Positions 17,920 to 34,980 of a stretch of 38,999 nt of DNA are shown one piece after another. Made by a program: the position numbers and the translations under genes. The stretch's first letter is position 1, and each line of letters begins with the position of its first letter. The notes beneath the pieces were generated by a model that worked only from the letters and a program-made list of their open reading frames with translations, was not told where the DNA came from and did no database searches. The stretch comes from a virus, in UHGV virus genome UHGV-1350822; one strand, 5' to 3'.

Positions 17920-17953
17920 TGTAGAAAGACTGGATCAATCCACAGGAGTAATT

Positions 17954-18992: not shown

Positions 18993-20418
18993 TTTTTATG
19001 CGCCGCCCCATAGCATCGAGGCAGAGCAGGCGGTTATTGGTGGATTGCTTCTGGATGATGACAGCAGTGAGCGCGTCCGGAAAGTTCTGGCGATGCTGAA
19101 GCCTGATTCATTTTACAGCCGGCCACACAAAATCCTTTTCGAAGAAATAACCAGAATGCACCGGGAGCAAAAGCCAGTAGATGGGCTGACGCTTTTCGAT
19201 GAACTGGAGCGCAAATCGTTAACGGCGTCTGTTGGCGGTTTTGCTTATATCGCTGAGATCGCAAAGAACACGCCAAGCGCAGCAAACATCGTTGCCTATG
19301 CAATGCAGGTTCGTGAAACCGCAATGGAACGCTACGCCATCAACCGCATGACTGAAGCGACGGAATTGCTCTATTCACGCAACGGAATGACTGCAACGCA
19401 GAAGTACGAAGCTATTCAGGCGATTTTCACGCAACTGACAGACCATGCAAAAACCGGATCGCGTCGCGGCCTTCGCTTATTTGGTGAGGTCATGGAAGAC
19501 TGGGTTAGCGACCTTGAGAAGCGATTTGACCCGTCAGGCGAACAACGAGGAATGAGCACAGGGATCCCATCGCTGGACAGGATGCTGTCACCGAAAGGTC
19601 TGGTGAAAGGCTCTCTGTTTGTCATTGGCGCTCGCCCTAAGATGGGGAAAACGACGCTATACAGCCAGATGGCAATCAATTGCGCAGTGCATGAGAAAAA
19701 GCCAGCTCTGATGTTCAGCCTTGAAATGCCAGGTGACCAGATACTGGAAAAACTGGTAGGGCAGAAGTCTGGTGTTAACCCGAATATTTTTTACCTTCCG
19801 GCGACAAATGACGCTGATGACGGCTATCAGGGTGATTACGATGGTGACTTCAACAGGGCGATCGAAACAGCAAATCGCTTGAGTGAAATCGACCTGCTTT
19901 ACATCGACGACACGCCTGGATTATCTCTGGCTCAAATCGTCAGCGAAAGCCGTCGAATCAAGCGAGAAAAAGGATGTGTTGGGATGATTCTGGTCGATTA
20001 CCTGACACTAATGACCGCTGAGAAAGCCGATCGTAACGACCTTGCTTACGGCATGATCACCAAAGGACTGAAGAACCTTGCCAAAGAGCTTGATTGCGTT
20101 GTTGTGCTTCTGACGCAGCTTAACCGCGCACTGGAAAGCCGAACCAATAAACGCCCATTACCAAGTGACTCGCGCGATACAGGGCAGATTGAACAGGATT
20201 GCGATTATTGGGTGGGGATCCATCGTGAAGGTGCTTTTGATGACAGTGTTCCGCCTGGTGAAACCGAACTAATCCTTCGTCTCAATCGTCATGGCAATAC
20301 CGGCACGGTGTATTGCATTCAGGCAAATGGCGCTATTTATGACACAGACCAACAGTCTGCTGAAATGCGCCGCCGTGAACGCGAGGAACCGCAGTCCAAG
20401 AAGAAAGGAGGATTCTGA
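18982..20418 (+). CDS. DnaB-family replicative helicase (P22 gene 12 type)
   Basis: Walker A GARPKMGKTT; N-terminal DnaB domain; start overlaps the initiator gene end, GAGGGTG RBS. Confidence 0.9.
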   Translation: MTDNFYAPPHSIEAEQAVIGGLLLDDDSSERVRKVLAMLKPDSFYSRPHKILFEEITRMHREQKPVDGLTLFDELERKSLTASVGGFAYIAEIAKNTPSAANIVAYAMQVRETAMERYAINRMTEATELLYSRNGMTATQKYEAIQAIFTQLTDHAKTGSRRGLRLFGEVMEDWVSDLEKRFDPSGEQRGMSTGIPSLDRMLSPKGLVKGSLFVIGARPKMGKTTLYSQMAINCAVHEKKPALMFSLEMPGDQILEKLVGQKSGVNPNIFYLPATNDADDGYQGDYDGDFNRAIETANRLSEIDLLYIDDTPGLSLAQIVSESRRIKREKGCVGMILVDYLTLMTAEKADRNDLAYGMITKGLKNLAKELDCVVVLLTQLNRALESRTNKRPLPSDSRDTGQIEQDCDYWVGIHREGAFDDSVPPGETELILRLNRHGNTGTVYCIQANGAIYDTDQQSAEMRRREREEPQSKKKGGF

Positions 20419-20455
20419 TGACCACCTACATCACTGAGCTAATAACAGGCCTGCT

Positions 20456-20486
20456 GGTAATCGCAGGCCTTTTTATTTGGGGGAGA
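20456..20486 (+). terminator. Rho-independent terminator (tR2-like) after the helicase
   Basis: 8-bp stem AGGCCTGC/GCAGGCCT with 8-nt loop, followed by TTTTTATTT. Confidence 0.75.
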
Positions 20487-20493
20487 GGGAAGT

Positions 20494-20820
20494 GTGGCTG
20501 ACTGGCAAATTCCAATCATCATTCTTGCCGGAGCTTCGCTGGTTGCTGGCTTTATCCTGCTGAAAAAGCATAAAGACCGTGATCAAAAAGTCGAAGTTCT
20601 CTATGGGTATCCAGCGAACAGCACAACATGGCTGACCATTTACCACTACCGAAAATCAGGCCGCTGGGTATTCGAATGGGATGATCTGTTCGCTGAAAAG
20701 CGATCAAAGTCATGGGGAGACATCAGCGAATGCATGATGTTTGAAGAAAGAAAATCCGGCGCAACTCGAGAAGAGTTTAACGAAGCGTGGGCGCGATTAA
20801 GTGAGAGAGGGTATTTGTGA
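20494..20820 (+). CDS. Hypothetical membrane-anchored protein (N-terminal TM helix), ren position
   Basis: 108-aa ORF; N-terminal hydrophobic helix IPIIILAGASLVAGFILL. Confidence 0.5.
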   Translation: MADWQIPIIILAGASLVAGFILLKKHKDRDQKVEVLYGYPANSTTWLTIYHYRKSGRWVFEWDDLFAEKRSKSWGDISECMMFEERKSGATREEFNEAWARLSERGYL

Positions 20821-21017
20821 GCAAGTACGAAAAATTAGATCAAAACATTCTTTCAATGCTGAGTGAAAGACCAACACCTGTTTTTGATATCTGGCTTAAA
20901 TGGCGGAGCAATGGAATGTATATCGAAACCATCGATCGCCGTATGCAATACCTGAGAAAGAAAGGGCTTGTTGCAAATGTGCGTGGGAAGGGTTGGGTGA
21001 AAATTAACCTGTCATAA
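20817..21017 (+). CDS. Hypothetical small protein, possible winged-helix
   Basis: 66-aa ORF; GTGA start/stop overlap with the upstream gene. Confidence 0.45.
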   Translation: MSKYEKLDQNILSMLSERPTPVFDIWLKWRSNGMYIETIDRRMQYLRKKGLVANVRGKGWVKINLS

Positions 21018-21028
21018 CGGGGATTGAT

Positions 21029-21295
21029 ATGGACGAATCAAGAAAGCAGTTTGAAGAATGGTTTGAAAATTACACCGGATGTGATCCTAAAAATAAAATA
21101 TACGCCAATATGGTTGAGATGTATTGGCAAGCGTGGCAGGCATCGCGAGCAGCTATCGAGATTGAGTGTCCTGGAAAAAGAGAGCGTGAGGCATTTTCTA
21201 CCGATTTCGAGGATGGGGTCACATTTGGTTATAACGACGCAATTAGTGAATGCGAAGGACGGATTCGCGCTGCTGGAGTCAAAGTGAAGGAGTGA
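21029..21295 (+). CDS. Hypothetical protein
   Basis: 88-aa ORF with RBS. Confidence 0.5.
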   Translation: MDESRKQFEEWFENYTGCDPKNKIYANMVEMYWQAWQASRAAIEIECPGKREREAFSTDFEDGVTFGYNDAISECEGRIRAAGVKVKE

Positions 21296-21297
21296 GT

Positions 21298-21462
21298 ATG
21301 AGCGCATACGAAGAAATCATGTTAGCCCTGCGATTCTTTTTCGGTGTGGAAGAAGATGAAAACGTAAATGAGATTATCGGGCAAGACCATGACCCGATAG
21401 GGACTATTGCAGCTGCACTTGACGATTACAGGAGCGTAAATGGTGAGGAAACTAACGTTTGA
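21298..21462 (+). CDS. Hypothetical small acidic protein
   Basis: AAGGAG RBS before ATG 21298; ORF track shows a longer version from 21250. Confidence 0.4.
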   Translation: MSAYEEIMLALRFFFGVEEDENVNEIIGQDHDPIGTIAAALDDYRSVNGEETNV

Positions 21463-21883
21463 ACTAAGAAGCCCCATCCATCAGCAGAACGCCATTCAAG
21501 CTATCCAGCAAATTCTTCCAGACCCAACCAAACCAATCGTAGTAACCATTCAGGAACGCAACCGCAGCTTAGACCAAAACAGGAAGCTATGGGCCTGCTT
21601 AGGTGACGTCTCTCGTCAGGTTGAATGGCATGGTCGCTGGCTGGATGCAGAAAGCTGGAAGTGTGTGTTTACCGCAGCATTAAAGCAGCAGGATGTTGTT
21701 CCTAACCTTGCCGGGAATGGCTTTGTGGTAATAGGCCAGTCAACCAGCAGGATGCGTGTAAGCGAATTTGCTGAGCTATTAGAGCTTATACAGGCATTCG
21801 GGACAGAGCGTGGCGTTAAGTGGTCAGACGAAGCGCGACTGGCTCTCGAATGGAAAGCGCGATGGGGAGATCGGGCTGCATGA
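21440..21883 (+). CDS. ninB: NinB (Orf-family recombination mediator)
   Basis: Near-identity to lambda NinB as recalled (…LTFE.RSP.HQQNAI.A.QQILPDPTKPIVVTIQERNRSLDQNRKLWACLGDVSRQVEWHGRWLDAESWK…). Confidence 0.9.
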   Translation: MVRKLTFELRSPIHQQNAIQAIQQILPDPTKPIVVTIQERNRSLDQNRKLWACLGDVSRQVEWHGRWLDAESWKCVFTAALKQQDVVPNLAGNGFVVIGQSTSRMRVSEFAELLELIQAFGTERGVKWSDEARLALEWKARWGDRAA

Positions 21884-22407
21884 CTATCAAATCAAATACG
21901 CCGGCACACGACAAGGACTGCTGGCAAACGCCGCTTTGGCTTTTTGATGCACTGGATATTGAGTTTGGATTCTGGCTGGATTCGGCAGCGAGCGACAAAA
22001 ATGCTCTGTGCGCTCACTGGTTAACTGAGGCCGACGACGCGCTAAATTCTGAGTGGATAAGCCACGGTGCAATCTGGAATAACCCACCGTACAGCAATAT
22101 CAGGCCGTGGGTGGAAAAAGCCGCTGAGCAGTGCATACAACAGCGACAGACGGTAGTTATGCTTGTGCCAGAGGATATGTCAGTCGGATGGTTCAGCAAG
22201 GCTCTGGAGAGTGTCGACGAAGTTCGCATTATCACTGATGGACGGATTAATTTTATCGAACCATCGACAGGGCTGGAGAAGAAGGGAAACAGCAAAGGCT
22301 CCATGCTGCTGATTTGGCGACCGTTCATCAGTCCTCGACGGATGTTTACTACCGTATCCAAAGCGGCATTGATGGCGATCGGGCAGGGCGTCAGGAGGGC
22401 GGCATGA
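21880..22407 (+). CDS. Orphan phage N6-adenine DNA methyltransferase (Dam-like)
   Basis: NPPY catalytic motif ([10 protein letters not shown]); ATGA overlap with the ninB stop at 21880 (ORF-track start at 21820 is unlikely). Confidence 0.75.
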
Positions 22408-22586
22408 GGCGACAGCGACGAAGTTTCACCGACATCATCTGCGAAAACTGCAAATACATTCCAACGAAACGCTCCAGAAATAAACGCAAGCCAATCCCAA
22501 AAGAATCTGACGTAAAAACCTTCAACTACACGGCTCACCTGTGGGATATCCGGTGGCTTAGAGAACGTGCGAGGAAAACAAGGTGA
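22404..22586 (+). CDS. ninE: NinE
   Basis: [23 protein letters not shown]...[16 protein letters not shown] matches lambda NinE; ATGA overlap with the upstream gene. Confidence 0.8.
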
Positions 22587-22753
22587 TTGACCAAAATCGA
22601 AGTTACGAACAAGAAAGCGTCGAGCGAGCTTTAACGTGCGCTAACTGCGGTCAGAAGCTGCATGTGCTGGAAGTTCACATGTGTGAGCACTGCTGCGCAG
22701 AACTGATGAGCGATCCGAACAGCTCAATGTACGAGGAAGAAGACGATGAATGA
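22583..22753 (+). CDS. ninF: NinF
   Basis: GTG start; translation [48 protein letters not shown] matches lambda NinF; not in the ORF track (under 60 aa). Confidence 0.7.
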
Positions 22754-23468
22754 GTTAATAAATGGCAATTCCATCAAAATGACAAGCATTGAAATCGCTG
22801 AGTTGGTGGGAAGTCGTCATGACAAGGTGAAACAATCTATTGAACGACTGGCGGCTCGAGGTGTGATCCGAAATCCCCCAATGGTGGTTTTCGAAAAAAT
22901 CAATAACTTAGGATTACTTCGTGGCGTAGAGGCTTACGTTTTTGAGGGCGAACAAGGTAAGCGAGACAGCATTATTGTCGTCGCTCAGTTGTCGCCGGAA
23001 TTCACCGCTCGTCTTGTTGACCGTTGGCGAGAGCTTGAGGAAACTGCGGTTAATATCCCCAAAACGCTACCAGAAGCGTTGCGCCTTGCTGCTGATCTTG
23101 CTGAGCAGAAAATGCAACTGGAAAACCAGCTCGCAATTGCCGCACCTAAAGTTGAGTTTGCCGATCGCGTTGGCGAGGCCAGCGGAATTTTGATTGGAAA
23201 CTTTGCAAAGGTTGTTGGAATTGGTCCAAACAAACTGTTTGCGTGGATGCGCGATCACAAAATCCTTATTGCTTCAGGTTCCCGGCGAAATGTGCCAATG
23301 CAGGAATATATGGATCGCGGCTATTTCACAGTGAAAGAAACAGCGGTCAACACAAATCACGGAATACAGATATCGTTCACCACAAAAATCACCGGGCGTG
23401 GTCAACAGTGGCTGACCAGAAAGCTGCACGATAACGGAATGCTGAAAGTAACAGGGGAGGCTGCTTAA
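22746..23468 (+). CDS. roi: Roi-like / Rha-KilAC antirepressor-family DNA-binding protein
   Basis: 240-aa protein; N-terminal Rha-like region and C-terminal KilA-C-like domain; nin-region position as for HK022 roi (recalled). Confidence 0.6.
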   Translation: MNELINGNSIKMTSIEIAELVGSRHDKVKQSIERLAARGVIRNPPMVVFEKINNLGLLRGVEAYVFEGEQGKRDSIIVVAQLSPEFTARLVDRWRELEETAVNIPKTLPEALRLAADLAEQKMQLENQLAIAAPKVEFADRVGEASGILIGNFAKVVGIGPNKLFAWMRDHKILIASGSRRNVPMQEYMDRGYFTVKETAVNTNHGIQISFTTKITGRGQQWLTRKLHDNGMLKVTGEAA

Positions 23469-23758
23469 TGGCTAACCTACGCAAAGAAGCGCGCGGAAGA
23501 GAATGTCAGGTACGTATTTACGGCGTATGCAATGGCAACCCTGAAACTACAGTTCTGGCACATTACCGGATGGCTGGAATTTGCGGAACGGGAATGAAGC
23601 CTGACGACCTGATCGGCGCATGGGCTTGTAGCGCGTGTCACGATGAAATCGACCGACGCACCCATAATCTCGACAACAAAGACGCCAGACTTTACCACCT
23701 CGAAGGCGTGATCAGGACGCAGGTGATACTACTGAAGGAGGGAAAGATTAAGCCATGA
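23468..23758 (+). CDS. ybcO: YbcO-like DUF1364 protein (putative nuclease)
   Basis: MANLRKEARGRECQVRIYGVCNGNPETTVLAHYR...CSACHDEIDRR resembles DLP12 YbcO. Confidence 0.7.
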   Translation: MANLRKEARGRECQVRIYGVCNGNPETTVLAHYRMAGICGTGMKPDDLIGAWACSACHDEIDRRTHNLDNKDARLYHLEGVIRTQVILLKEGKIKP

Positions 23759-24117
23759 ACGAATATCAGTTTGTGCTTCCATACCCGCCGTCGGTGAATA
23801 CCTACTGGCGAAGAAGGGGAAGCCAATACTACATCAGCGATAAAGGCCAGAAATACAGAAAAGACGTTCAGAAAATCATCCGCCAACTCAAGTTAGATAT
23901 TTTCACCAAATCACGACTCCGCATCAAAGTCATCGCAGACGTTCCAGACTCCCGCCGCCGCGACCTCGATAACATCCTGAAGGGTTTACTCGACTCCCTT
24001 ATCCACGCCGGATTTGCGGAAGACGACGAGCAATTCGATGACATTCGCGTAATTCGTGGCGTGAAAGTACCAGGCGGAAGGCTTGGAATAAAAATCACCG
24101 AACTGGAGAACGTATGA
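23755..24117 (+). CDS. rusA: RusA Holliday-junction resolvase
   Basis: 120 aa; conserved RRRDLDN motif and overall similarity to E. coli RusA. Confidence 0.85.
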   Translation: MNEYQFVLPYPPSVNTYWRRRGSQYYISDKGQKYRKDVQKIIRQLKLDIFTKSRLRIKVIADVPDSRRRDLDNILKGLLDSLIHAGFAEDDEQFDDIRVIRGVKVPGGRLGIKITELENV

Positions 24118-24302
24118 ACGCCACAATTCAAACGATACCAGAGCTTCTTATCCAGACACGAGGCAATCAGACCGAAGTGGCGAGGATGCTTTCCTGCGCA
24201 AGAGGAACGGTGCTCAAGTACAACCGAGACAGCAAAGGCGAACGTCACGTAATAGTTAACGGCGTCCTGATGGTCAAACAGGGCAAGAGGGGGAGACGAT
24301 GA
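24114..24302 (+). CDS. ninH: NinH
   Basis: TIPELLIQTRGNQTEVARMLSCARGTVLKY...VNGVLMV resembles lambda NinH. Confidence 0.75.
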   Translation: MNATIQTIPELLIQTRGNQTEVARMLSCARGTVLKYNRDSKGERHVIVNGVLMVKQGKRGRR

Positions 24303-24922
24303 GACTCGAAAGCGTAGCTAAATTTCATTCGCCAAAAAGCCCGATGATGAGCGACTCACCACGGGCCACGGCTTCTGACTCTCTTTCCGGTACTGATGTG
24401 ATGGCTGCCATGGGGATGGCGCAATCACAAGCCGGATTCGGAATGGCTGCATTCTGTGGTAAGCACGAACTCAGCCAGAACGACAAACAAAAGGCTATCA
24501 ACTATCTGATGCAATTTGCACACAAGGTATCGGGGAAATACCGTGGTGTGGCAAAGCTCGAAGGAAATACTAAGGCGAAGGTACTGCAAGTGCTCGCAAC
24601 ATTCGCTTATGCGGATTATTGCCGTAGTGCCGCGACACCGGGCGCAAGATGCAGAGATTGCCACGGTACTGGCCGGGCCGTTGATATTGCCAAAACAGAG
24701 CAGTGGGGGAGAGTTGTCGAGAAAGAGTGCGGAAGATGCAAAGGCGTCGGCTATTCTAGGATGCCAGCAAGCGCCGCATATCGCGCTGTAACGATGCTAA
24801 TCCCCAACCTTACCCAACCCACCTGGTCACGAACTGTTAAGCCGCTGTATGACGCTCTGGTGGTGCAATGCCACAAGGAAGAGTCAATCGCAGACAACAT
24901 TTTGAACGCGGTCACACGTTAG
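24299..24922 (+). CDS. Q: Late-gene antiterminator Q (lambda type)
   Basis: 207-aa protein essentially identical to lambda Q as recalled, with the zinc-finger CRDCHGTGR...CGRCKG. Confidence 0.95.
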   Translation: MRLESVAKFHSPKSPMMSDSPRATASDSLSGTDVMAAMGMAQSQAGFGMAAFCGKHELSQNDKQKAINYLMQFAHKVSGKYRGVAKLEGNTKAKVLQVLATFAYADYCRSAATPGARCRDCHGTGRAVDIAKTEQWGRVVEKECGRCKGVGYSRMPASAAYRAVTMLIPNLTQPTWSRTVKPLYDALVVQCHKEESIADNILNAVTR

Positions 24923-24964
24923 CAGCATGATTGCCACGGATGGCAACATATTAACGGCATGATA

Positions 24965-24993
24965 TTGACTTTTTGAATAAAGTTGGGTAAATT
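24965..24993 (+). promoter_or_regulatory. Late promoter pR' (-35 TTGACT, 17-bp spacer, -10 TAAATT) with adjacent Q-utilisation region
   Basis: Sequence nearly identical to the lambda pR' region. Confidence 0.8.
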
Positions 24994-25172
24994 TGACCCA
25001 ACGATGGGTTAATTCGCTCGTTGTGGTAGTGAGATAAAAAGAGGCGGCGCTTACTACCGATTCCGCCTAGTTGGTCACTTCGACGTATCGTCTGGAACTC
25101 CAACCATCGCAGGCTGAGAGGTCTGCAAAATGCAATCCCGAAACAGTTCGCAGGTAATAGTTAGAGCCTGCA

Positions 25173-25272
25173 NNNNNNNNNNNNNNNNNNNNNNNNNNNN
25201 NNNNNNNNNNNNNNNNNNNNNNNNNNNNNNNNNNNNNNNNNNNNNNNNNNNNNNNNNNNNNNNNNNNNNNNN
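25173..25272. other. Assembly gap (100 Ns) flanked by 55-bp duplicated sequence
   Basis: 25118-25172 is identical to 25273-25327; typical scaffold join across a k=55 overlap. Confidence 0.95.
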
Positions 25273-25289
25273 GAGGTCTGCAAAATGCA

Positions 25290-25346
25290 ATCCCGAAACA
25301 GTTCGCAGGTAATAGTTAGAGCCTGCATAACGGTTTCGGGATTTTT
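25290..25346 (+). terminator. tR' Rho-independent terminator
   Basis: Long hairpin CCCGAAAC...GTTTCGGG followed by ATTTTTTAT, as in lambda tR'. Confidence 0.8.
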
Positions 25347-25427
25347 TATATCTGTGCAACAGGTAAGAGCATTGAACCCGCAGACCTCGCGGAATTGGTG
25401 AAAGGTGCCGCGCAGTGCTCTTATCGT

Positions 25428-25557
25428 TGTGGTGAAGCTCAATGGCGAGCTAGCAGATAGGCGACAGTGAAAATACTAGTCATGTAGCTGACCGCCGCGC
25501 GTACTGCAATCGGCAGCGCACCGATGGAAGCCGGTTCGATTCCGGCCGCCACAACCC
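25428..25557 (+). other. tRNA-like element, possible tRNA relic (canonical T-arm and anticodon-like arm, acceptor-complementary 7-mers 126 nt apart)
   Basis: T-arm GCCGG-TTCGATT-CCGGC (25530-46); arm ATCGG-CAGCGCA-CCGAT (25509-25); 3' CGCCACA (25547-53) pairs with TGTGGTG (25428-34) next to a D-arm-like GCTC-AATGGC-GAGC; no clean cloverleaf and no encoded CCA. Confidence 0.3.
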
Positions 25558-25799
25558 AAACTGAGCCGTAGCCACTGGCTATCCTGAATTCATCAGTGAT
25601 AGTTACGCTGCTGCCTTCTACACATGATCTTCGTGAAAGCGGGTGGCAGGAGGTCGCGCTAACAACCTCCTGCCGTTTTGCCCGTGCATATCGGTCACGA
25701 ACAAATCTGATTACTAAACACAGTAGCCTGGATTTGTTCTATCAGTAATCGACCTTATTCCTAATTAAATAGAGCAAATCCCCTTATTGGGGGTAAGAC

Positions 25800-26123
25800 A
25801 TGAAGATGCCAGAAAAACATGACCTGTTAGCCGCCATTCTCGCGGCAAAGGAACAAGGCATCGGGGCAATCCTTGCGTTTGCAATGGCGTACCTTCGCGG
25901 CAGATATAATGGCGGTGCGTTTACAAAAACAGTAATCGACGCAACGATGTGCGCCATTATCGCCTGGTTCATTCGTGACCTTCTCGACTTCGCCGGACTA
26001 AGTAGCAATCTCGCTTATATAACGAGCGTGTTTATCGGCTACATCGGTACTGACTCGATTGGTTCGCTTATCAAACGCTTCGCTGCTAAAAAAGCCGGAG
26101 TAGAAGATGGTGGAAATCAATAA
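25800..26123 (+). CDS. S: Class I holin S (lambda type, dual-start S107/S105)
   Basis: [34 protein letters not shown]... essentially identical to lambda S; dual Met starts at codons 1 and 3. Confidence 0.95.
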
Positions 26124-26583
26124 TCAACGTAAGGCGTTCCTCGATATGCTGGCGTGGTCAGAGGGAACTGATAACGGACGACAGAAAACCAGAAATCATG
26201 GTTATGACGTCATTGTAGGCGGAGAGCTATTCACTGATTACTCAGATCACCCTCGCAAACTTGTCACGCTAAACCCAAAACTCAAATCAACAGCAGCCGG
26301 GCGCTATCAGCTTCTTTCCCGTTGGTGGGATGCCTATCGTAAGCAGCTTGGCCTGAAAGACTTCTCTCCGAAAAGCCAGGACGCTGTGGCACTGCAACAG
26401 ATTAAAGAGCGTGGCGCTTTACCGATGATTGATCGCGGTGATATTCGTCAGGCTATCGACCGTTGCAGTAATATCTGGGCTTCACTGCCGGGCGCTGGTT
26501 ATGGTCAGTTCGAGCATAAGGCTGACAGCCTGATTGCAAAATTCAAAGAAGCAGGCGGAACGGTCAGAGAGATTGAGGTATGA
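26107..26583 (+). CDS. R: Endolysin R (lytic transglycosylase)
   Basis: 158-aa protein essentially identical to lambda R. Confidence 0.95.
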
Positions 26584-27017
26584 GCAGAGTAACCGCGATT
26601 ATCTCCGCTCTGGTTATCTGCATCATCGTCTGCCTGTCATGGGCTGTTAATCATTACCGTGATAACGCCATGACCTACAAAGAGCAGCGCGATAAAGCCA
26701 CATCCATCATCGCTGATATGCAGAAGCGTCAACGTGATGTAGCAGAACTCGACGCCAGATACACAAAGGAGCTTGCTGATGCTAACGCGACTATCGAAAG
26801 TCTCCGTGCTGATGTTTCTGCTGGGCGTAAGCGCCTGCAAGTCGCCGCCACCTGTGCAAAGTCAACGACCGGAGCCAGCGGCATGGGCGATGGAGAAAGC
26901 CCAAGACTTACAGCAGATGCTGAACTCAATTATTACCGTCTCCGAAGTGGAATCGACAAGATAACCGCGCAGGTTAACTACTTGCAGGAATACATCAGGA
27001 CGCAATGCCTTCGATGA
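26580..27017 (+). CDS. Rz: i-spanin Rz
   Basis: N-terminal TM anchor followed by coiled-coil; N-terminus identical to lambda Rz, middle divergent. Confidence 0.9.
26773..26964 (+). CDS. Rz1: o-spanin Rz1 (lipoprotein embedded in the +1 frame of Rz)
   Basis: Signal peptide with lipobox VSAC followed by a Pro-rich segment ([13 protein letters not shown]), nested within Rz. Confidence 0.8.
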
Positions 27018-27191
27018 TAGCGATAATTTTACTCATCATCCTTCACATCTGGCTCTGTAGACAGGGTGGTGATCACTTCTGGAGTGAATCCAGATTAAAC
27101 ATCTCATTGCTGATGCTTGAAGTTGAGCATCTGGCGCGCGGTAAGGGGCTGCGTTGAGATAAGAGCCAGTTCATTACAAATACCAGGATTT

Positions 27192-27216
27192 AGCCTCGCA
27201 TTCGCGGGGCTTTTTA
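27192..27216 (+). terminator. Rho-independent terminator downstream of the lysis cassette
   Basis: Stem AGCCTCGC/GCGGGGCT (one G-U pair) with ATTC loop, followed by TTTTT. Confidence 0.6.
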
Positions 27217-27359
27217 TATCTGAATTTCACAGCGCATCTCACGCGCATATTAACGAGAGCCTTTCAGTAAGCGAGCCTGAGAAATGCCGTTATAGGTGGC
27301 GACCTCTCTCGGGCGGCTTTTCTGTGAGACAGGCTCACTTTCTAAAAGGTAAAGACGCT

Positions 27360-27878
27360 ATGAATCATCAATTGGCTAATCTCGATTTCCGGGACATGGT
27401 GGTTGTTTCTGGTGATCGCGTGATCACAACCTCCCGCAAGGTAGCAGCTTACTTCGACAAGCAGCATCACCACATCATTCAGAAAATCGAAAAGCTAGAC
27501 TGTTCGGATGAATTTCTAACCAGCAACTTTTCGCGGGTTACCTATGAACACAAGGGTAATCAGTATGTTGAATATGAAATTTCCAAAGACGGCGCGATGT
27601 ACATCATCATGTCGTTTACCGGCAAAAAAGCTGCCGCCATCAAAGAGGCGTTTATCAAAGCATTTAATTGGATGCGTGACAGGCTGATGGAGATGGCTCA
27701 CTCATACCAAAGAGAGCACAACGAGTTAATGCTGGAGTTCATGAAGGAAAAGGATGTTGCCAGTATGTCAGGACGCTTGCTGAACCGCTGGGGCAGGATC
27801 AAAAAACCGCAACTCATAGCAAGAATCGAAAGGCTTGAGCAGCAGGCGCAAATATCGATCCCCGGACTGCCAAAGTGA
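27360..27878 (+). CDS. rha: Rha-family phage regulatory protein
   Basis: 172 aa from ATG 27360; N-terminal Rha signature (...VVVSGDRVITTSRKVAAYFDKQHHHIIQKIEKL...); same position as P22 rha between lysis and packaging genes; the ORF-track N-terminal extension is unlikely. Confidence 0.75.
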   Translation: MNHQLANLDFRDMVVVSGDRVITTSRKVAAYFDKQHHHIIQKIEKLDCSDEFLTSNFSRVTYEHKGNQYVEYEISKDGAMYIIMSFTGKKAAAIKEAFIKAFNWMRDRLMEMAHSYQREHNELMLEFMKEKDVASMSGRLLNRWGRIKKPQLIARIERLEQQAQISIPGLPK

Positions 27879-28074
27879 CCATTCCAAATCCCATCTACGG
27901 GTGGGCTTGATAATGAAACTGTGATTTACATCCCCACAATCCGGGTATGTAAAAAATAGTTCAGGCGAGAACAGATTTAACTAAATCTGTGCACCACCAG
28001 TTACGGCAGTACCACGAAGCAACCCAAGCCAGTAAGTGGGGAAATAACACTGGCAGCCACTGAAAGATGAACCT

Positions 28075-28174
28075 NNNNNNNNNNNNNNNNNNNNNNNNNN
28101 NNNNNNNNNNNNNNNNNNNNNNNNNNNNNNNNNNNNNNNNNNNNNNNNNNNNNNNNNNNNNNNNNNNNNNNNNN
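28075..28174. other. Assembly gap (100 Ns) flanked by 55-bp duplicated sequence
   Basis: 28020-28074 is identical to 28175-28229. Confidence 0.95.
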
Positions 28175-28385
28175 CAACCCAAGCCAGTAAGTGGGGAAAT
28201 AACACTGGCAGCCACTGAAAGATGAACCTCCAGCCTTATGGCAAAAAAGATTCTTTGTGGTGGCGGACTGATGGAAAGACATCGGTTATTGCAGAGGCCA
28301 TTCAATGAGTGGTCTCGACAATGGCTTATACCCTACACGGGATAACTTAACTGATATCCCTTTTAACGGATAAACGGAGCCAACA

Positions 28386-28628
28386 ATGGCAGAGATTATT
28401 CCCATGACTGAAGAACAGAAATTCCAGTTAGAGATTTACAAACTGGTCATGAACCAGAACGCAGCCGCAGAGGAAGCATTTCAGTTCATTGGCACTGACG
28501 AACTGAAGCTTGAGTTATTCAAAATTCACTTCCAGTCAGGCGGCGCTAATTCAGATATCACGATCCGCACATTCGAAGCAGTGCGTAAATCGAAGGAAGC
28601 GTTAGACCTGTTCACTACCGGAGCATAA
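28386..28628 (+). CDS. Hypothetical protein upstream of the small terminase (orf80 position in P22)
   Basis: 80-aa ORF with GGAG RBS. Confidence 0.6.
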   Translation: MAEIIPMTEEQKFQLEIYKLVMNQNAAAEEAFQFIGTDELKLELFKIHFQSGGANSDITIRTFEAVRKSKEALDLFTTGA

Positions 28629-28630
28629 AC

Positions 28631-29071
28631 ATGGCGCGCCCAACAAAGTATCAAGAGGCGTATGCCGAACAGGCACGCAAACTGTGCTTGCTGGGCTACA
28701 CCGATGCAGAACTTGCTGATTTCTTTGAAGTCAGTGAGTCAACTATTAACAAGTGGAAGCTTGATTATCCTAAGTTTTCGGAGTCCATAAAAAAGGGTAA
28801 GGCCGTCGCTGATGCAGAAGTTAGTGACCGTCTTTATCAACGCGCTATGGGCTTTGTGGCTCCAGACATCGATATTCGTGTTATTGAAAACAGAATTGTC
28901 GAAACTCCGCTTGAGAAGTATTACCCGCCTGATACAACCGCCGCCATCTTCTGGCTTAAGAACCGACAGAAGGATAAATGGCGCGACAAGGTTGATCACG
29001 AGCTAACAGGCAAAGACGGCGGCGCAATTCAGATTGAAACATCACCGATGAGCACTCTATTCGGAAAATGA
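28631..29071 (+). CDS. Terminase small subunit
   Basis: 146-aa protein with N-terminal HTH-like DNA-binding region; immediately upstream of and overlapping TerL. Confidence 0.8.
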   Translation: MARPTKYQEAYAEQARKLCLLGYTDAELADFFEVSESTINKWKLDYPKFSESIKKGKAVADAEVSDRLYQRAMGFVAPDIDIRVIENRIVETPLEKYYPPDTTAAIFWLKNRQKDKWRDKVDHELTGKDGGAIQIETSPMSTLFGK

Positions 29072-30483
29072 CCTCGATTAATCCTATCTTTGAACCGTTC
29101 ATTGAGGCGCATCGCTACAAAGTTGCCAAAGGCGGTCGAGGTAGCGGTAAATCATGGGCAATTGCGAGGCTGCTTGTTGAGGCGGCACGTCGGCAGCCTG
29201 TGCGTATTCTCTGCGCTCGTGAACTGCAAAACAGTATCAGCGATTCGGTAATCCGGTTGCTTGAAGATACCATCGAGCGTGAAGGGTATTCGGCTGAGTT
29301 TGAAATTCAGCGTTCCATGATTCGTCATCTCGGAACGAATGCTGAGTTCATGTTCTACGGCATCAAAAACAACCCGACGAAGATTAAATCGCTCGAAGGC
29401 ATTGATATCTGCTGGGTGGAAGAAGCGGAAGCGGTAACGAAGGAATCATGGGATATCCTGATACCAACCATCCGTAAGCCGTTCTCTGAAATATGGGTGA
29501 GCTTTAACCCGAAGAACATACTCGACGATACCTATCAGCGATTCGTTGTAAATCCTCCCGATGATATTTGCCTGCTGACGGTGAACTACACCGACAATCC
29601 GCACTTTCCTGAAGTTCTCCGTCTGGAGATGGAAGAGTGCAAACGCAGAAATCCGACACTGTATCGTCACATCTGGCTTGGTGAGCCAGTAAGCGCAAGT
29701 GATATGGCAATCATCAAACGTGAATGGCTTGAAGCCGCAACCGATGCGCACAAGAAACTCGGATGGAAAGCGAAAGGCGCTGTTGTCTCTGCGCATGACC
29801 CATCAGATACAGGGCCAGATGCTAAAGGTTATGCATCGCGTCACGGTTCGGTTGTTAAGCGCATTGCCGAAGGCCTGCTGATGGACATCAACGAGGGTGC
29901 TGACTGGGCTACTTCGCTGGCGATTGAAGACGGCGCTGACCATTACCTGTGGGATGGTGATGGTGTTGGTGCCGGGCTACGCAGACAGACAACGGAAGCG
30001 TTCTCCGGCAAGAAAATCACCGCCACGATGTTCAAGGGCAGCGAATCGCCATTCGATGAAGATGCGCCATATCAGGCCGGAGCATGGGCTGATGAAGTCG
30101 TACAGGGTGACAACGTTCGCACTATTGGTGATGTGTTCCGCAATAAGCGAGCGCAATTCTATTACGCGCTGGCTGACAGGCTTTATCTGACATATCGGTC
30201 GGTTGTCCACGGTGAGTATGCAGACCCCGACGACATGCTGAGTTTCGACAAAGAAGCGATAGGCGAGAAGATGCTGGAGAAGCTGTTTGCAGAACTGACG
30301 CAGATTCAGCGCAAATTCAATAACAACGGGAAGCTGGAGCTAATGACTAAGGTCGAAATGAAGCAGAAGCTCGGCATTCCATCTCCTAACCTGGCTGATG
30401 CGCTGATGATGTGTATGCATTGCCCGGAGTCGGCTGCGCAACCCGACTATTCCAGTTACTCAATTCCTTGTGGTGTAGGTTGA
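29068..30483 (+). CDS. Terminase large subunit (ATPase/nuclease)
   Basis: Walker A KGGRGSGKS; 471 aa; ATGA overlap with TerS. Confidence 0.95.
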   Translation: MTSINPIFEPFIEAHRYKVAKGGRGSGKSWAIARLLVEAARRQPVRILCARELQNSISDSVIRLLEDTIEREGYSAEFEIQRSMIRHLGTNAEFMFYGIKNNPTKIKSLEGIDICWVEEAEAVTKESWDILIPTIRKPFSEIWVSFNPKNILDDTYQRFVVNPPDDICLLTVNYTDNPHFPEVLRLEMEECKRRNPTLYRHIWLGEPVSASDMAIIKREWLEAATDAHKKLGWKAKGAVVSAHDPSDTGPDAKGYASRHGSVVKRIAEGLLMDINEGADWATSLAIEDGADHYLWDGDGVGAGLRRQTTEAFSGKKITATMFKGSESPFDEDAPYQAGAWADEVVQGDNVRTIGDVFRNKRAQFYYALADRLYLTYRSVVHGEYADPDDMLSFDKEAIGEKMLEKLFAELTQIQRKFNNNGKLELMTKVEMKQKLGIPSPNLADALMMCMHCPESAAQPDYSSYSIPCGVG

Positions 30484-30484
30484 T

Positions 30485-32683
30485 ATGGCAGAAAAAAAGA
30501 TGACTGACTGGCATCGCAAGGTGCTGTGCAACTTTGATAATGCCTGGTCAGCAACGAAGGATATGCGTGAGCAGATTATAGAAGCTCAACGCTTCGTCAG
30601 GGTGTCCGGCGCACAGTGGGAAGGCAGCACAAATGCTGGTTACTCATTTGATGAAGGCAGGTTCGAGCATTATCCGCGCTTTGAACTGAATAAGATTGCC
30701 CGTGAATGTGATCGCATCATTGGCGAGTATCGACAGAATCGCATCAGCGTTAAATTCAGGCCGAAGGATGACAAGGCATCGGAAGCGTTAGCCGAAAAAA
30801 TGAACGGCAAATTCCGCGCTGACTATCAGGAAACATCCGGTGGCGAAGCGTGTGATAACGCATTTGATGATGCTGTAACGGGCGGATTCGGTTGTTTCCG
30901 CATGTGTGCTGATTACGAAGATGAAATGGATCCGAGTAACGAGCAGCGACGCATCAGCCTTCTTCCTGTTTACGACCCGGCGACATGCGTCTTCTTTGAT
31001 CAGGACAGCAAGCAATATGACCGCTCTGATGCTATGTGGGCTATGGAAATGTTCTCCATGACGCCTAAAGCGTTCGAGGCTGAATACCCTGATTCCATCG
31101 CGGCAAGCCTTTCTCGTGATGACACTGGTACTCAGTATGACTGGTCAACTCCTGATGCCATCTATGTTGGACGCTACTACGAAGTCCGCATAGAGAAGGT
31201 GAAGCTCACAGCATGGCGTAACCCTGTCAGCGGAGAAACGGCAATCTATGATGAAGAGCAAATCAAAGATATTGTCGACGAGCTGACCGATGGTGCATTC
31301 GAACTGATTGGCGAGCGAACGGTGAAGAAACGCCGCGTTTATTGCGGTCTTCTGTCTGGCGCTGAATGGCTGGAAGAACCGAAGCGTATTCCGGGCGAAC
31401 ATATTCCTCTCATCCCGGTATATGGGCGTCGCTCATTTGTTGATAATCAGGAGCGAATCGAAGGCCACGCTGCAAAAGCGATGGATGCACAGCGTCTTGA
31501 GAACCTGATGGTTTCCATGATTGCAGATAACGCTACTCAGGCTGGCGGTGATGGCATTCCTGTAGTTGATGTTGACATGATTCCTGGTCCTCTCGCCACT
31601 CATTGGGCGGAGCGCAACAAAAAGCGCCCGGCGTTCCTGCCGATGGTCAGTCTGAAAAACAAAAACGGAGATATTACTGCGCAGGCTCAGGTCAGCAGTT
31701 ATACGCCTTCGACACAAATGCCTCCAGCTCTTGCCGGGCTATTGCAGTACACCGGAACGGCTATTCAGCAAATTACAGGTGCGTCTCAGCTTGAGAACAT
31801 GCCGAGCAACGTCGCCACCGATACCGTTGATAGCATCTTTAACCGGATGGATACGCAGTCCTATATCTACATGGACAACATGGCTAAATCCATGCGTCGC
31901 GCTGGCGTTGTGTGGCTTTCTATGGCGCGTGAGGTCTATGGAAGTGATACGCCGATGCGTATCGTTAATGAGGATGGCAGCGATGACGTGGCGCTGATGA
32001 CTGGTGAAGTGGTTGACCGTCAGACAGGGCAGGTTATCGCGCTTAACGACCTTTCGCAGGGTAACTATGAAGTGACTGTCGATGTCGGTCAGTCGTTCGC
32101 TACTCGCCGTGATGCAACGGTTAAGTCGTTACTTTCCATGCTGGCACTTATCCCACCAGGAACGCCGAAGCACGACCTTGTATCGTCGATGATTCTCGAC
32201 AATATGGACGGCGAAGGGATGGACGACCTTAAAGAATACAACCGCAATCAGTTGCTTCTGTCTGGCGTTATCAAGCCGAGAACGCCTGAAGAACAGCAGA
32301 TGGTTGAACAGGCGAAACAACAACAGGCCAGTCAGCCAGATCCGGCTATGGTTGCAGCGCAAGGTCAGCTTCTTGCTGGTCAGGCTGAATTGCAGAAAGC
32401 GCAGAACGAACAGGCAGCCATTCAGGTTAAAGCATTCCAGGCACAGACGGATGCTCAGGTTGCTGCGGCAAATGTTGTGAAAATCCTCGCATCTGCCGAT
32501 AGCCAGCAAAAATCTGATATCCGTGAGGCGCTGAAACTGCTCGGACAGTTCCAGCAACAGCAAGGAGACAATGCCCGTGCTGATGCAGAGCTTGTCCTGA
32601 AAAGTCAGGCACAGGGCCATGCACAACGAATGGACATCAGCAGCATCCTGCAAAAATCAACCCAGCAACAACCACAGCAGTAA
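30485..32683 (+). CDS. Portal protein (P22 gp1 type with long C-terminal Gln-rich barrel helix)
   Basis: 732 aa; position after TerL; C-terminal Q/A-rich coiled segment. Confidence 0.9.
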   Translation: MAEKKMTDWHRKVLCNFDNAWSATKDMREQIIEAQRFVRVSGAQWEGSTNAGYSFDEGRFEHYPRFELNKIARECDRIIGEYRQNRISVKFRPKDDKASEALAEKMNGKFRADYQETSGGEACDNAFDDAVTGGFGCFRMCADYEDEMDPSNEQRRISLLPVYDPATCVFFDQDSKQYDRSDAMWAMEMFSMTPKAFEAEYPDSIAASLSRDDTGTQYDWSTPDAIYVGRYYEVRIEKVKLTAWRNPVSGETAIYDEEQIKDIVDELTDGAFELIGERTVKKRRVYCGLLSGAEWLEEPKRIPGEHIPLIPVYGRRSFVDNQERIEGHAAKAMDAQRLENLMVSMIADNATQAGGDGIPVVDVDMIPGPLATHWAERNKKRPAFLPMVSLKNKNGDITAQAQVSSYTPSTQMPPALAGLLQYTGTAIQQITGASQLENMPSNVATDTVDSIFNRMDTQSYIYMDNMAKSMRRAGVVWLSMAREVYGSDTPMRIVNEDGSDDVALMTGEVVDRQTGQVIALNDLSQGNYEVTVDVGQSFATRRDATVKSLLSMLALIPPGTPKHDLVSSMILDNMDGEGMDDLKEYNRNQLLLSGVIKPRTPEEQQMVEQAKQQQASQPDPAMVAAQGQLLAGQAELQKAQNEQAAIQVKAFQAQTDAQVAAANVVKILASADSQQKSDIREALKLLGQFQQQQGDNARADAELVLKSQAQGHAQRMDISSILQKSTQQQPQQ

Positions 32684-32773
32684 TTAACCCATAACGTGCA
32701 ATGGCTGTCTTTATGAGGCCTTGCACCCTATTGCCTTCCGATGGGCTGAACATCGAGTAAACAGGGGTAACAA

Positions 32774-33667
32774 ATGGACCAGATGGCAGAAAACACACCA
32801 GAAGTTGAAATCGAAACCGACGCGTCAGAGCAGATTCCTGATGATGTCGAACTGGCTGAAGAAGTCGAAACAGAAGATGGCAGTGAGTCCTCCGGCAATG
32901 ATGCAGAGGAAGCTACTGAAACTGATGACGACGAATCAGAACAGGAATTCTACTTTGGTGACGAAAAGCTGGATTCGCCAACCAGCGAAGATGGCGCTGA
33001 GCATGGACTGGTAAAACACCTGCGCAAGACGATTAAAGAGAAAGACCGCGAGCTGAAAGAGCTGATGCGTCAGTCTCAGAAACCCGTCGAGCAGCAGCCG
33101 GTAATCACTCACCCACCGCGAATGCCAAAACTGGATGATGAGGACATCGGTTTCGATGAAGAAATCTACCAGCAACGCATGGCTAAGTGGGCAGAGGATA
33201 ACGGCAAGTACCAGCAACAGGAGATGGCTCGCAAGCAGAAGGAGCAGGAGCTTCAGGCTGCCTATCAAGAGCGATTATCCAAATATCAGCAACGTGTTAA
33301 GGCTCTCAAAGTTCCTGGCTATCAGGAAGCTGAGCAGGCCGTACTCGAGGAAATTCCCATCGAGACACAAAACGCGATCCTGTTTGAGTCAGAGAAGCCG
33401 GAAATCGTTGTTCTGGCGCTCGGTCGCAACGCTGAACTGCGCAAGCAACTGGCAGAAGCTACCAACCCCGTAGCAATTGGTCGTCTGCTGGAACGTATCG
33501 AATCGAAGGCCAGAATCATGCCAAAAGCAAAAACCACGGCAGCCACAACCCCGACAGTTAAGGGGAGCAACGGCGCAGTAATCAATAACCTCGACAAACT
33601 GAAAGCCAAGGCGCTGGAAACTGGTGACTGGACGCCGTATTTCGCCGCTAAAAAGGCAAAAAAATAA
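32774..33667 (+). CDS. Scaffolding protein
   Basis: 297 aa, highly acidic and helical with charged repeats, basic C-terminus; between portal and coat. Confidence 0.85.
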   Translation: MDQMAENTPEVEIETDASEQIPDDVELAEEVETEDGSESSGNDAEEATETDDDESEQEFYFGDEKLDSPTSEDGAEHGLVKHLRKTIKEKDRELKELMRQSQKPVEQQPVITHPPRMPKLDDEDIGFDEEIYQQRMAKWAEDNGKYQQQEMARKQKEQELQAAYQERLSKYQQRVKALKVPGYQEAEQAVLEEIPIETQNAILFESEKPEIVVLALGRNAELRKQLAEATNPVAIGRLLERIESKARIMPKAKTTAATTPTVKGSNGAVINNLDKLKAKALETGDWTPYFAAKKAKK

Positions 33668-33685
33668 CCTATCGGAGCATTAAGC

Positions 33686-34939
33686 ATGGCTAACCAATTA
33701 GCAAAAGACCTTGAAATCATGTTCGAAAACTACGTTGAAGGCTTTGAGGCCGCCTGCGTAGTTTCCCGTAACGCTAAAAAATTCCGTCCCGGTGATACCG
33801 CAATGCAGCGAGCAGGTGATGTTCTGTATCGTCCGCAGCATTACCACATGAACATTGAAGAAGGCCTCGATCTCAGCGGCAAAACGCCTACAGCACTGGT
33901 TCAGCGCCTTGTTCCTTCTGTGTTCAAGGAGCCGAAAAACATTCTGTACACTCTGGATGCGCGTGAAATGCGTGACCCGGAACATAAAACTGAAGCTGGT
34001 CGAGCCGCAGGTATGCGCCTTGCTGCACAGATTGACTCTGACCTGATTTCCATGGTCACGCAGCGTGCTACTAACGTGATCACGATGGGTGACTCAACCA
34101 CAGGTTCACAGGGCCGTGATTTGTGGAACTGTGCGGCAGGTATTGATGCCACCATGACGGCGATTGGTGTACCTCAGGGTATCAACCGTCGCTCTTTCTG
34201 GAACCCCTTCAACTACAAAGACCTTGCTGGCGAGCTTGGTCACCGTGCCTATGCTCAGGGCGCAACCCTGACAGCATACGAAAAAGCGCAGATCCCTCCG
34301 GTTGCGTCCTTCGATAGCTACAAGACCGATATTTCTGGTCGTGTTCCGAAGGGTACAGCAACTTCCATTACGCTGGCAGCAGCACCTGCGCACAAGGTTG
34401 AAGCGAAAGATGCTAACGATATGCCAGTGGATAACCGACAGGGGACCATTACGGTATCTGCTGAAGGTTTGCAGGTTGGCGATGCGTTTACCATTGCAGG
34501 GGTGAATTCTGTACACCAGATCACCAAAGATACCACCGGGCAGCCGCAGGTATTCCGCGTTCTGGCAGTAAGCGGAACGACAGTAACTATCTCCCCGAAA
34601 ATTCTGCCGCCTGACAACGCGGATGTCGCCAGCCGACCATATGCAAACGTTGATGCTAACGCGGCAAATGGTGCAGCAATTACCATTCTCAACAAAAATG
34701 CCGCACCGGCTAACCTGTTCTGGGCTGATGGTTCTGTTGAGCTGATGTACGGCAAACTGGCGTTCCCGACTGGTCAGGGTCCACAGGTAATGACAGCAAC
34801 CACCGAGCAGGGCGCTACGCTGATCATGTCTTACGCCTTCGACCACATCAAAGGCGTAACCACTGCTCGTTTCACCACTCTGTACGGTTGCTCTGTACTT
34901 GTTCCTGAATATACGGGCATCGTTATTGCCGGGCAGTAA
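33686..34939 (+). CDS. Major capsid (coat) protein
   Basis: 417 aa; position; followed by a strong terminator, as expected for a highly expressed coat gene. Confidence 0.9.
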   Translation: MANQLAKDLEIMFENYVEGFEAACVVSRNAKKFRPGDTAMQRAGDVLYRPQHYHMNIEEGLDLSGKTPTALVQRLVPSVFKEPKNILYTLDAREMRDPEHKTEAGRAAGMRLAAQIDSDLISMVTQRATNVITMGDSTTGSQGRDLWNCAAGIDATMTAIGVPQGINRRSFWNPFNYKDLAGELGHRAYAQGATLTAYEKAQIPPVASFDSYKTDISGRVPKGTATSITLAAAPAHKVEAKDANDMPVDNRQGTITVSAEGLQVGDAFTIAGVNSVHQITKDTTGQPQVFRVLAVSGTTVTISPKILPPDNADVASRPYANVDANAANGAAITILNKNAAPANLFWADGSVELMYGKLAFPTGQGPQVMTATTEQGATLIMSYAFDHIKGVTTARFTTLYGCSVLVPEYTGIVIAGQ

Positions 34940-34946
34940 TTTTGGT

Positions 34947-34966: not shown

Positions 34967-34980
34967 ATTGGGAGAAGACA

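Follow-up and report, generated by a model that had tools for sequence, protein, structure and literature searches.

Gene content and layout of the record

The window (the whole analysed stretch of DNA from the virus genome UHGV-1350822, 38,999 nucleotides) consists of A, C, G and T throughout except for two N-runs, each of exactly 100 positions (25173-25272 and 28075-28174), by which it is divided into three contigs, here termed A, M and B:

1..25172: contig A, with ejection genes, tailspike, acyltransferase, int, attP, early region, nin genes, Q, pR' and part of tR'; free of Ns and breaks, ending with the 55-mer of the first seam
25273..28074: contig M (2802 bp), with tR', a 176-bp variable module, S, R, Rz/Rz1, a 50-aa ORF and Rha; a 55-mer at each end
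28175..38999: contig B, with DUF2560, small and large terminase, portal, scaffold, coat, head-completion genes and the start of the ejection genes

The late-control and lysis genes around the first seam and within contig M are as follows:

24299..24922, +: antiterminator Q (PF03589, E=1e-57)
24965..24993, +: pR'-like late promoter (TTGACT-17-TAAATT), downstream of Q
25289..25351, +: tR'-type intrinsic terminator (hairpin 25289-25343, T-run thereafter), whole in the right-hand copy of the seam-1 repeat only
25374..25549: variable (mosaic) module of 176 bp between tR' and S, replaced in most relatives
25800..26123, +: holin S, lambda family (PF05106, E=2e-30)
26107..26583, +: endolysin R-like ORF of 158 aa, without Pfam match
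26580..27017, +: Rz spanin (PF03245, E=1e-36)
26773-26964: ORF of Rz1, embedded in Rz in another frame (PF06085, E=2e-20)
27117..27878, +: Rha-family regulator (PF09669 and PF10549)

The order holin, endolysin and Rz/Rz1 downstream of Q, pR' and tR' is that of the lambda-type lysis region, and the phage resembles lambda in possessing Q, a lambda-family holin (RefSeq relatives are annotated as “phage holin, lambda family”), Rz with embedded Rz1, the pR'-like promoter (likened to pR' of the lambda sequence) and a tR'-type hairpin with T-run. The hairpin has a calculated stability of -28.2 kcal/mol (z = -5.0 versus shuffled sequences) and is followed by UUUUUUAU. In contrast to lambda, where the lysis genes are followed by nu1/A, a Rha regulator and a P22-type packaging module succeed them here. 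In L001 and L002, the R-like ORF has a homologue with the annotation “glycoside hydrolase family protein”. The Rha domain does not start until residue 104, so that the TTG-started Rha ORF has probably been called too long; the homologue in strain PK8217 is annotated as 519 nt. Thus, the gene list of an earlier note on this DNA, comprising tR', S, R, Rz/Rz1 and rha, holds on the basis of Pfam matches, annotated relatives (R) and the predicted hairpin (tR'), with the exception of a “tRNA-like element” that corresponds to the 176-bp module: between Q and S, ARAGORN predicted 0 tRNA genes and Rfam gave 0 matches at the gathering threshold, neither a tRNA nor another known RNA being found in this interval; a permissive scan returned only a 17-nt T-arm-like match (25530-25546, E=0.05). 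The module itself differs from that of most relatives, in which homology is lost at position 3219 of the collapsed query and regained at 3396; indeed, sub-modules inside contig M are swapped in most relatives.

The best matches in the phage database (HK620, CUS-3, vB_EcoP_Kapi1 and phiv205-1) matched 52-64% of a 25-kb query at 95-96% identity; a near-identical genome was absent from the phage set (the best covering 64% of the query). The phage is similar to the P22-like E. coli podophages in its P22-type portal, coat and ejection proteins, its tailspike head-binding domain and its size of about 38.6 kb; it differs from the four phages named above by its mosaic combination of early, lysis, tailspike and acyltransferase modules, with no record exceeding 64% of the query.

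The seams and their counterparts in other genomes

The features located at the two seams are listed below; the N-spanning ORFs (seven of at least 40 aa) are mechanical calls:

25118..25172: left copy of the seam-1 55-mer, the last 55 nt of contig A; of the tR' hairpin it contains the 5' half only
25173..25272: 100-N filler of seam 1; true gap length -55
28020..28074: left copy of the seam-2 55-mer, the last 55 nt of contig M, intergenic between rha and the DUF2560 gene
28075..28174: 100-N filler of seam 2; true gap length -55
25075-25359 (-), 25130-25312 (+), 25161-25442 (-): N-spanning ORFs at seam 1
27961-28305 (-), 27981-28205 (-), 28001-28282 (-), 28067-28225 (+): N-spanning ORFs at seam 2

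The earlier note had claimed that the 55 bp before each N-run are exactly repeated after it, and both pairs were verified as identical: 25118-25172 equals 25273-25327, and 28020-28074 equals 28175-28229, in each case over exactly 55 nt adjoining the N-run, with a match that is not extendable. At both seams, 55 is the sole length at which the suffix before the Ns equals the prefix after them, so that overlap (55) and filler (100 N) are the same twice. The whole window has four exact direct repeats of 30 nt or longer, namely the two 55-mer pairs, a 30-mer pair at 18487/18553 and a 54-mer common to the two window ends. Two exact 55-mers each abutting an N-run cannot have arisen by chance. The further claim of the note that spurious ORFs originate at the joins was borne out by the seven N-crossing ORFs; once the seams are collapsed, a single ORF of 50 aa or more remains that overlaps the first seam, and the second seam is free of such ORFs.

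The junctions were compared in collapsed form (Ns and one copy of the 55-mer removed) with finished E. coli genomes and IMG/VR contigs. Collapsed junction 1 aligned in one piece with NZ_CP061754 (1200/1200 positions, 99.9% identity) and was covered to at least 80% in 308 genomes; collapsed junction 2 likewise aligned in one piece with NZ_CP080121 (98.7%) and was covered to at least 80% in 153 genomes. In finished genomes, the sequences left and right of each seam align to stretches of the subject that overlap by exactly 55 bp (6546-6600). Exact collapsed 105-mers spanning the seams were present in 51 (seam 1) and 5 (seam 2) N-free IMG/VR contigs, and one of these contigs, L005, contains both of them together with an exact 121-mer of the variable module of contig M. 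An exact 121-mer from M occurred in 28 IMG/VR contigs and one GTDB contig, all free of Ns and none being the source record; among the loci matched in this way, none exceeded 99% identity to the window over a length greater than about 1 kb. A pattern spanning the N-run had no match in IMG/VR. In strain PK8217, the corresponding gene order is Q-S-R-Rz-Rha-DUF2560-terS-terL-portal. As the collapsed junctions align as a whole or match exactly, each 55-mer is naturally single-copy and the true length of each gap is -55. The earlier reading of contigs joined across a k-mer overlap is supported by these alignments.

Direct repeats flanking a gap might alternatively be real, that is, target-site-like duplications or recombination sites around genuine unsequenced inserts. 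The presence of such repeats at each gap is the one point in favor of this reading, which has practically no probability left and is effectively refuted: both repeats measure exactly 55 nt and both gaps exactly 100 N, neither a second 55-mer copy nor an insert was found in any finished genome or N-free contig examined, and the two 55-mers are unrelated to each other in sequence, one being sited within a terminator and the other in an intergenic spacer.

The window is, with high probability, a scaffolding artefact in which the contigs A, M and B of a circularly permuted, P22-like (HK620/CUS-3/Kapi1-like) E. coli phage with a lambda-type late-control/lysis module were placed in a row with their k=55 overlaps unmerged. 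The phage would have been assembled from a de Bruijn graph with a final k of 55, adjacent contigs sharing the 55-mer of a branch node; a person or a scaffolder would then have ordered the contigs and put in a 100-N “gap of unknown length”, leaving the overlap unmerged. With 100 N and one redundant 55-mer, each seam accounts for 155 spurious positions. The value k=55 is presumably the SPAdes/metaSPAdes default, and the 100 N we take to be the INSDC convention or the default of a reference-guided scaffolder. The seams agree with unmerged k-overlaps joined by 100 N (e.g. of SPAdes/metaSPAdes at k 55), as exact duplications of 55 nt abut fixed N-runs and are single-copy in finished genomes.

Branch geometry and the origin of contig M

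The graph would have branched at both nodes because a second lambdoid or P22-like sequence, related to the first, was present among the reads. The nature of this sequence is suggested by the relatives: up to 25172 (the pR'-tR' leader) and from 28020 onward (upstream of DUF2560/terminase) it would share a conserved block with the present phage, and it would differ in between. Contig M would accordingly constitute one of two alternative branches and not a collapsed repeat. The cryptic prophages of K-12 presumably lack the P22-type packaging leader and hence could not, as such a second sequence, account for seam 2.

The earlier note had, on the contrary, suggested that M (tR' to rha) may be a collapsed repeat, i.e. 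a segment with at least two copies in the sequenced DNA that was placed once, the 55-mers being its first and last shared k-mers. Several observations are in line with this. Some part of the Q-to-terS region was matched in 4868 of 5426 finished E. coli genomes, at a median of 2 places per genome and at up to 12; a short contig between two graph nodes has the classic appearance of a repeat; and assemblies of others often break in the lysis region, with 23/80 terS-anchored contigs ending at most 4 kb upstream of terS versus approximately 5/80 downstream. The frequent breakage likewise supports the branch geometry. The ends of these contigs did not pile up at the seam coordinates, but clustered in the lysis region at different bases.

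The two geometries differ in the side of the 55-mers on which sequences should diverge, and this was examined with the relatives as proxies for the second sequence (the seam-1 loci being sampled by protein anchors). The bases just outside the 55-mers, where a collapsed repeat predicts divergence, were invariant among the relatives (25117 differed in 0/39, 28230 in 0/74), whereas those just inside M varied: 28019 at seam 2 differed in 68/74 and 25328 at seam 1 in 5/37 relatives, and only 1.3% and 6.3% of the sites nearby were as polymorphic as these two. Exact blocks of at least 55 nt shared their first base with the seam-2 55-mer in 32/70, 43/100 and 4/14 relatives and their last base with the seam-1 55-mer in 5/41 and 3/23 relatives; for the opposite geometry, exact blocks started at 25118 in none of the relatives and ended at collapsed position 27919 in one. 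Furthermore, in relatives with a different Q region homology resumes 12-30 nt right of the seam-1 55-mer and not at its left edge. With variable bases inside and invariant bases outside, M looks like one branch between two shared anchors, and the comparison fits an assignment of M as one divergent branch between conserved flanks; a collapsed repeat fits less well. As the counter-evidence derives from proxies, this rival is only lowered, to the level of a rather unlikely explanation. The seam-1 evidence is the weaker part, because the diagnostic difference occurs in only 5/37 relatives. At seam 2, the shared block comprises 57 nt in most relatives; since a sharing of only 57 nt would be resolvable by read pairs, the flanks shared with the second sequence may be longer than in the proxies.

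An unlikely explanation, likewise, is a chimeric join. In this case a reference sequence or a person would have dictated the order A-M-B, and M would come from some other phage or prophage that co-occurred with the source of A and B; the latter two would in reality belong with an alternative lysis module. Such a situation fits either branch geometry. A fixed filler of 100 N with unmerged overlap is typical of reference-guided or manual ordering; lambdoid phages are highly mosaic in this region, with most relatives swapping sub-modules of M and no finished E. coli genome being near-identical over the 25-kb stretch around the seams (the best covers 82% of it at 97% identity); and branch nodes at both ends of M imply at least one alternative path. 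Against a chimera, the arrangement is a natural one, given the identical gene order of PK8217 and the joint presence of both seam 105-mers and the 121-mer of the variable module in the N-free contig L005. Moreover, if the anchors were as short as the 57 nt seen at seam 2 in most relatives, read pairs would link the right partners.

Quite improbable, finally, is a real mixture of two phage genomes in one sample that had the Q/pR' leader and the packaging-module leader in common and carried different tR'-lysis-rha modules. If true, the scaffold would capture a module exchange at conserved linkers within one population; even so, this would be one more instance of the modular mosaicism for which lambdoid phages are well known, and nothing new.

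Phage form and consequences for the record

Two further features bear on the form in which the phage genome was recorded:

38926..38999: third, unjoined contig overlap, with 54 nt exact and 20 nt noisy
9046..9060: attP core, TGGTGTCCCCTGCAG, identical to the 3' end of the tRNA-Arg gene argW, with phage DNA on both sides

Positions 38926-38979 equal 1-54 exactly, while the last 20 nt match 55-74 at 16/20 positions only. An overlap of 54 nt instead of 55 does not conform to a clean k=55 node, and the record differs in this respect, and by the 20-nt error-like tip, from a clean k=55 overlap. The circularised junction aligned with finished prophages over 1200/1200 positions (97.9%). The terminal 31-mer of the window had no exact match in IMG/VR; for this reason, the last 20 nt, which look like an error tip, were treated as such, and their interpretation as a natural allele was set aside. 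A prophage of E. coli W is 99.3% identical over window positions 3732-9060 and diverges at 9060 into the host tRNA-Arg gene. P22-type structural genes, a self-closing record and an att core inside phage DNA were thus all found, as expected for the phage form of a P22-like phage, and, to judge from its sequence, the record is the circular phage form with intact attP and without host prophage flanks. The proposal of the earlier note that the bracketed segment is shared with other prophages in the same host stands in part: the region is often multi-copy in E. coli, but the prophages of the “same host” are an assumption in view of the circular form with intact attP.

The feature formed by the 55-mers and N-runs is a data-quality issue and not biology. 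Conclusions depending on the physical linkage of the lysis module to this Q region and to the packaging module should await read-level confirmation. The true sequence is obtained by deletion of 25173-25327 and 28075-28229 and has a length of 38,689 bp, or of about 38,615 bp as a circle without the 74-nt terminal overlap; as it stands, the record is 310 positions too long, in addition to the 74-nt terminal redundancy. It carries a half-copy of the tR' terminator and seven spurious N-spanning ORFs. Treating the sequence as an integrated prophage with host flanks would be wrong, and a user of the record might take the two false 55-bp “direct repeats” for att or recombination sites.

Duplicated flanks at the two N-runs

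Reading of the sequence and a script both located the only non-ACGT characters of the window in two runs of exactly 100 N each, 25173-25272 (seam 1) and 28075-28174 (seam 2), which separate contig A (1-25172), the 2802-bp middle contig M (25273-28074) and contig B (28175-38999). At both seams the sequence before the Ns equals that after them at a length of 55 nt only, and the full inventory of exact direct repeats of at least 30 nt across the window comprised four pairs:

Exact direct repeats of at least 30 nt in the window
25118-25172 / 25273-25327: identical 55-mer adjoining the N-run of seam 1
28020-28074 / 28175-28229: identical 55-mer adjoining the N-run of seam 2
18487 / 18553: 30-mer
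two window ends: 54-mer

Two exact 55-mers, each abutting an N-run, cannot be attributed to chance; the description of the runs and their duplicated flanks in the earlier note was borne out in full. The 30-mer (18487-18516 and 18553-18582, 66 bp apart) lies within a 296-aa ORF (18102-18992) that occupies the position of the replication protein, and the two copies could be origin iterons.

Collapsing of the duplications (removal of the Ns and of one copy of each 55-mer), which the earlier note had proposed as a check, yielded 1200-nt junction sequences that were compared with 5,426 finished E. coli genomes: Both aligned in one piece, junction 1 to NZ_CP061754 (single piece of ungapped length, 1200/1200, 99.9%) and junction 2 to NZ_CP080121 (strain PK8217; 98.7%), and they were covered to at least 80% in 308 and 153 of these genomes, respectively. 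When the raw window was aligned to the corresponding regions of the two genomes, the left alignment ended at subject position 6600 and the right one started at 6546 at each seam, an overlap of exactly 55 bp, so that the proposed joining of contigs across a k-mer overlap proved correct. Exact 105-mers across the collapsed seams 1 and 2 were present in 51 and 5 IMG/VR contigs, respectively, all of them N-free. From the one-piece alignments, the subject overlap and the N-free matches it follows that the true gap length is -55 at both seams. The 55-bp duplications are therefore not biological, each seam adds 155 spurious positions, and the N-runs are an assembly artefact without biological novelty; the record should be corrected by deletion of 25173-25327 and 28075-28229. 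The N-runs are traversed by seven ORFs (≥40 aa); after collapse, a single ORF of ≥50 aa overlaps seam 1 and none overlaps seam 2.

A fixed 100-N filler next to an unmerged overlap is the kind of product that reference-guided or manual ordering gives, and the natural occurrence of the order A-M-B is no proof that the present M and its flanks belong together in this sample. A mis-pairing of the middle contig in this sample is nevertheless improbable: Strain PK8217 has the same gene order, and one N-free IMG/VR contig (L005) carries both seam 105-mers together with a 121-mer that matches the variable module of M exactly. As judged from these sequences, the order A-M-B is a natural one.

Genes and elements around the seams

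The following features lie around seam 1 and within M, whose gene calls were drawn partly from the annotation of relatives:

24299-24922: antiterminator Q (PF03589), upstream of seam 1
24965-24993: promoter-like site TTGACT-17-TAAATT, upstream of seam 1
25289-25343: intact tR' hairpin
25374-25549: 176-bp module between tR' and holin
27005-27157: conserved 50-aa ORF overlapping the Rz end (hypothetical in the PK8217 annotation)
27117-27878: mechanical Rha ORF (253 aa, TTG start, Rha domain from residue 104)

The seam-1 55-mer sits in the late leader. With the bases after it, it makes up a terminator of the tR' type, in which a long hairpin (-28.2 kcal/mol, z = -5.0) precedes a U-run; the raw record severs the left copy of the 55-mer from the 3' arm, and only the right copy is intact. 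After tR', M contains the 176-bp module, holin S, a 158-aa R-like ORF, Rz with embedded Rz1, the 50-aa ORF and a Rha-family regulator; the lysis-segment contents named previously (tR', S, R, Rz/Rz1 and rha) were thus all located. The homologue of the latter regulator is annotated at 172 aa in PK8217, and the mechanical Rha ORF is probably over-extended. Seam 2 falls outside genes, between rha and a DUF2560 gene, downstream of which the small terminase, the large terminase and a P22-type portal follow. No real gene is interrupted by either seam.

Most relatives possess unrelated sequence in place of the 176-bp module. The “tRNA-like element” of the earlier note, which corresponds to this module, is not a tRNA: Neither ARAGORN nor Rfam reported a tRNA or other RNA at their thresholds, and a permissive scan revealed only a 17-nt T-arm-like match (25530-25546), so that the label should be dropped. 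Some lambdoid phages carry tRNA genes at this place, and the module may be what is left of such genes; the annotation of the O145:H28 strain RM13514 has a tRNA-Thr at the corresponding position.

Origin of the contig breaks

A branch node of a de Bruijn graph is where contigs with a common terminal k-mer meet; at least one other sequence with these 55-mers must therefore have been among the reads. If the flanks were common to two sequences and M were one of two alternative branches, divergence would be expected just inside M (25328 and 28019); if M were a collapsed repeat, as the earlier note had considered, its copies would diverge just outside the 55-mers (25117 and 28230). Natural relatives, sampled blind to the seams, served as proxies for the second sequence (IMG/VR loci, 80 each with the Q protein or the small terminase as the anchor). 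At seam 2 the inside base differed in 68/74 relatives and the outside base in 0/74, at seam 1 in 5/37 and 0/39, respectively; sites nearby that were equally polymorphic made up only 1.3% and 6.3%, respectively. The first base of the seam-2 55-mer was the starting point of an exact-match block (at least 55 nt) in 32/70, 43/100 and 4/14 relatives, depending on the anchor, and the last base of the seam-1 55-mer was the end point of such a block in 5/41 and 3/23; blocks of the opposite geometry occurred once and never.

The region is indeed repeat-prone, in that parts of the Q-to-terS segment are present in 4868 of the 5,426 finished genomes (median 2, up to 12 places per genome). The invariant outside bases and the variable inside bases argue against the collapsed repeat, which is the less likely of the two readings; with relatives as proxies, the data favor M as a branch between shared anchors, less strongly at seam 1. 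Contigs of other assemblies ended within 4 kb upstream of terS in 23/80 cases and downstream in about 5/80. For most relatives, the homologous stretch of the packaging-module leader reaches only 17-34 nt upstream of 28020, and this edge marks a recurrent mosaic boundary. The window carries the minority allele at both 28019 and 28232 (the latter, too, differs in most relatives), which bound a 57-nt block.

Circular phage form and relatives

Positions 1-54 are identical to 38926-38979, and the following 20 nt agree at 16/20 (1-74 versus 38926-38999). Joining of the window end to its start through this overlap restored one long open reading frame, and the resulting junction, inside the DNA-ejection genes, aligned to finished prophages over 1200/1200 (97.9%). 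IMG/VR contained no exact copy of the terminal 31-mer of the window, in keeping with an error tip in the last 20 nt. The E. coli W prophage matches 3732-9060 (99.3% identity, spanning tailspike, acyltransferase and integrase), departs at 9060 inside the 15-nt core TGGTGTCCCCTGCAG (9046-9060), the 3' terminus of the tRNA-Arg gene (argW) of the host, and proceeds into the host tRNA and yfdC; it is continuous across the end-to-start junction of the window. In consequence of the end overlap, the divergence at the tRNA-Arg core and this continuity, attP is flanked by phage DNA on both sides: The window is a circular permutation of a phage genome of ~38.6 kb and not a prophage with host flanks. The scaffold consists of the three contigs with three overlaps, two N-joined and one open at the record ends, and the record should be treated as a circular phage-form genome.

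The integrase of phages of this type has the tailspike-acyltransferase end on one side and the att site on the other. The acyltransferase-3 family gene (6354-7508, minus strand, between tailspike and integrase) has a low GC content of 35-39% and is likely an O-antigen-modifying moron.

The nearest named phages (phiv205-1, Kapi1, CUS-3 and HK620) were 95-96% identical to a 25-kb query and covered no more than 64% of it, and the best finished E. coli genome covered 82%; the window genome is that of an ordinary P22-like mosaic phage whose late and lysis module is of the lambda type. In a 'Cellvibrionaceae' MAG, a 9.7-kb contig (L058, JAUVQU010000080.1) was 95-98% identical to the nin-Q-lysis region of the window; it almost certainly comes from an enterobacterial phage and reached this species-representative genome by mis-binning or contamination.
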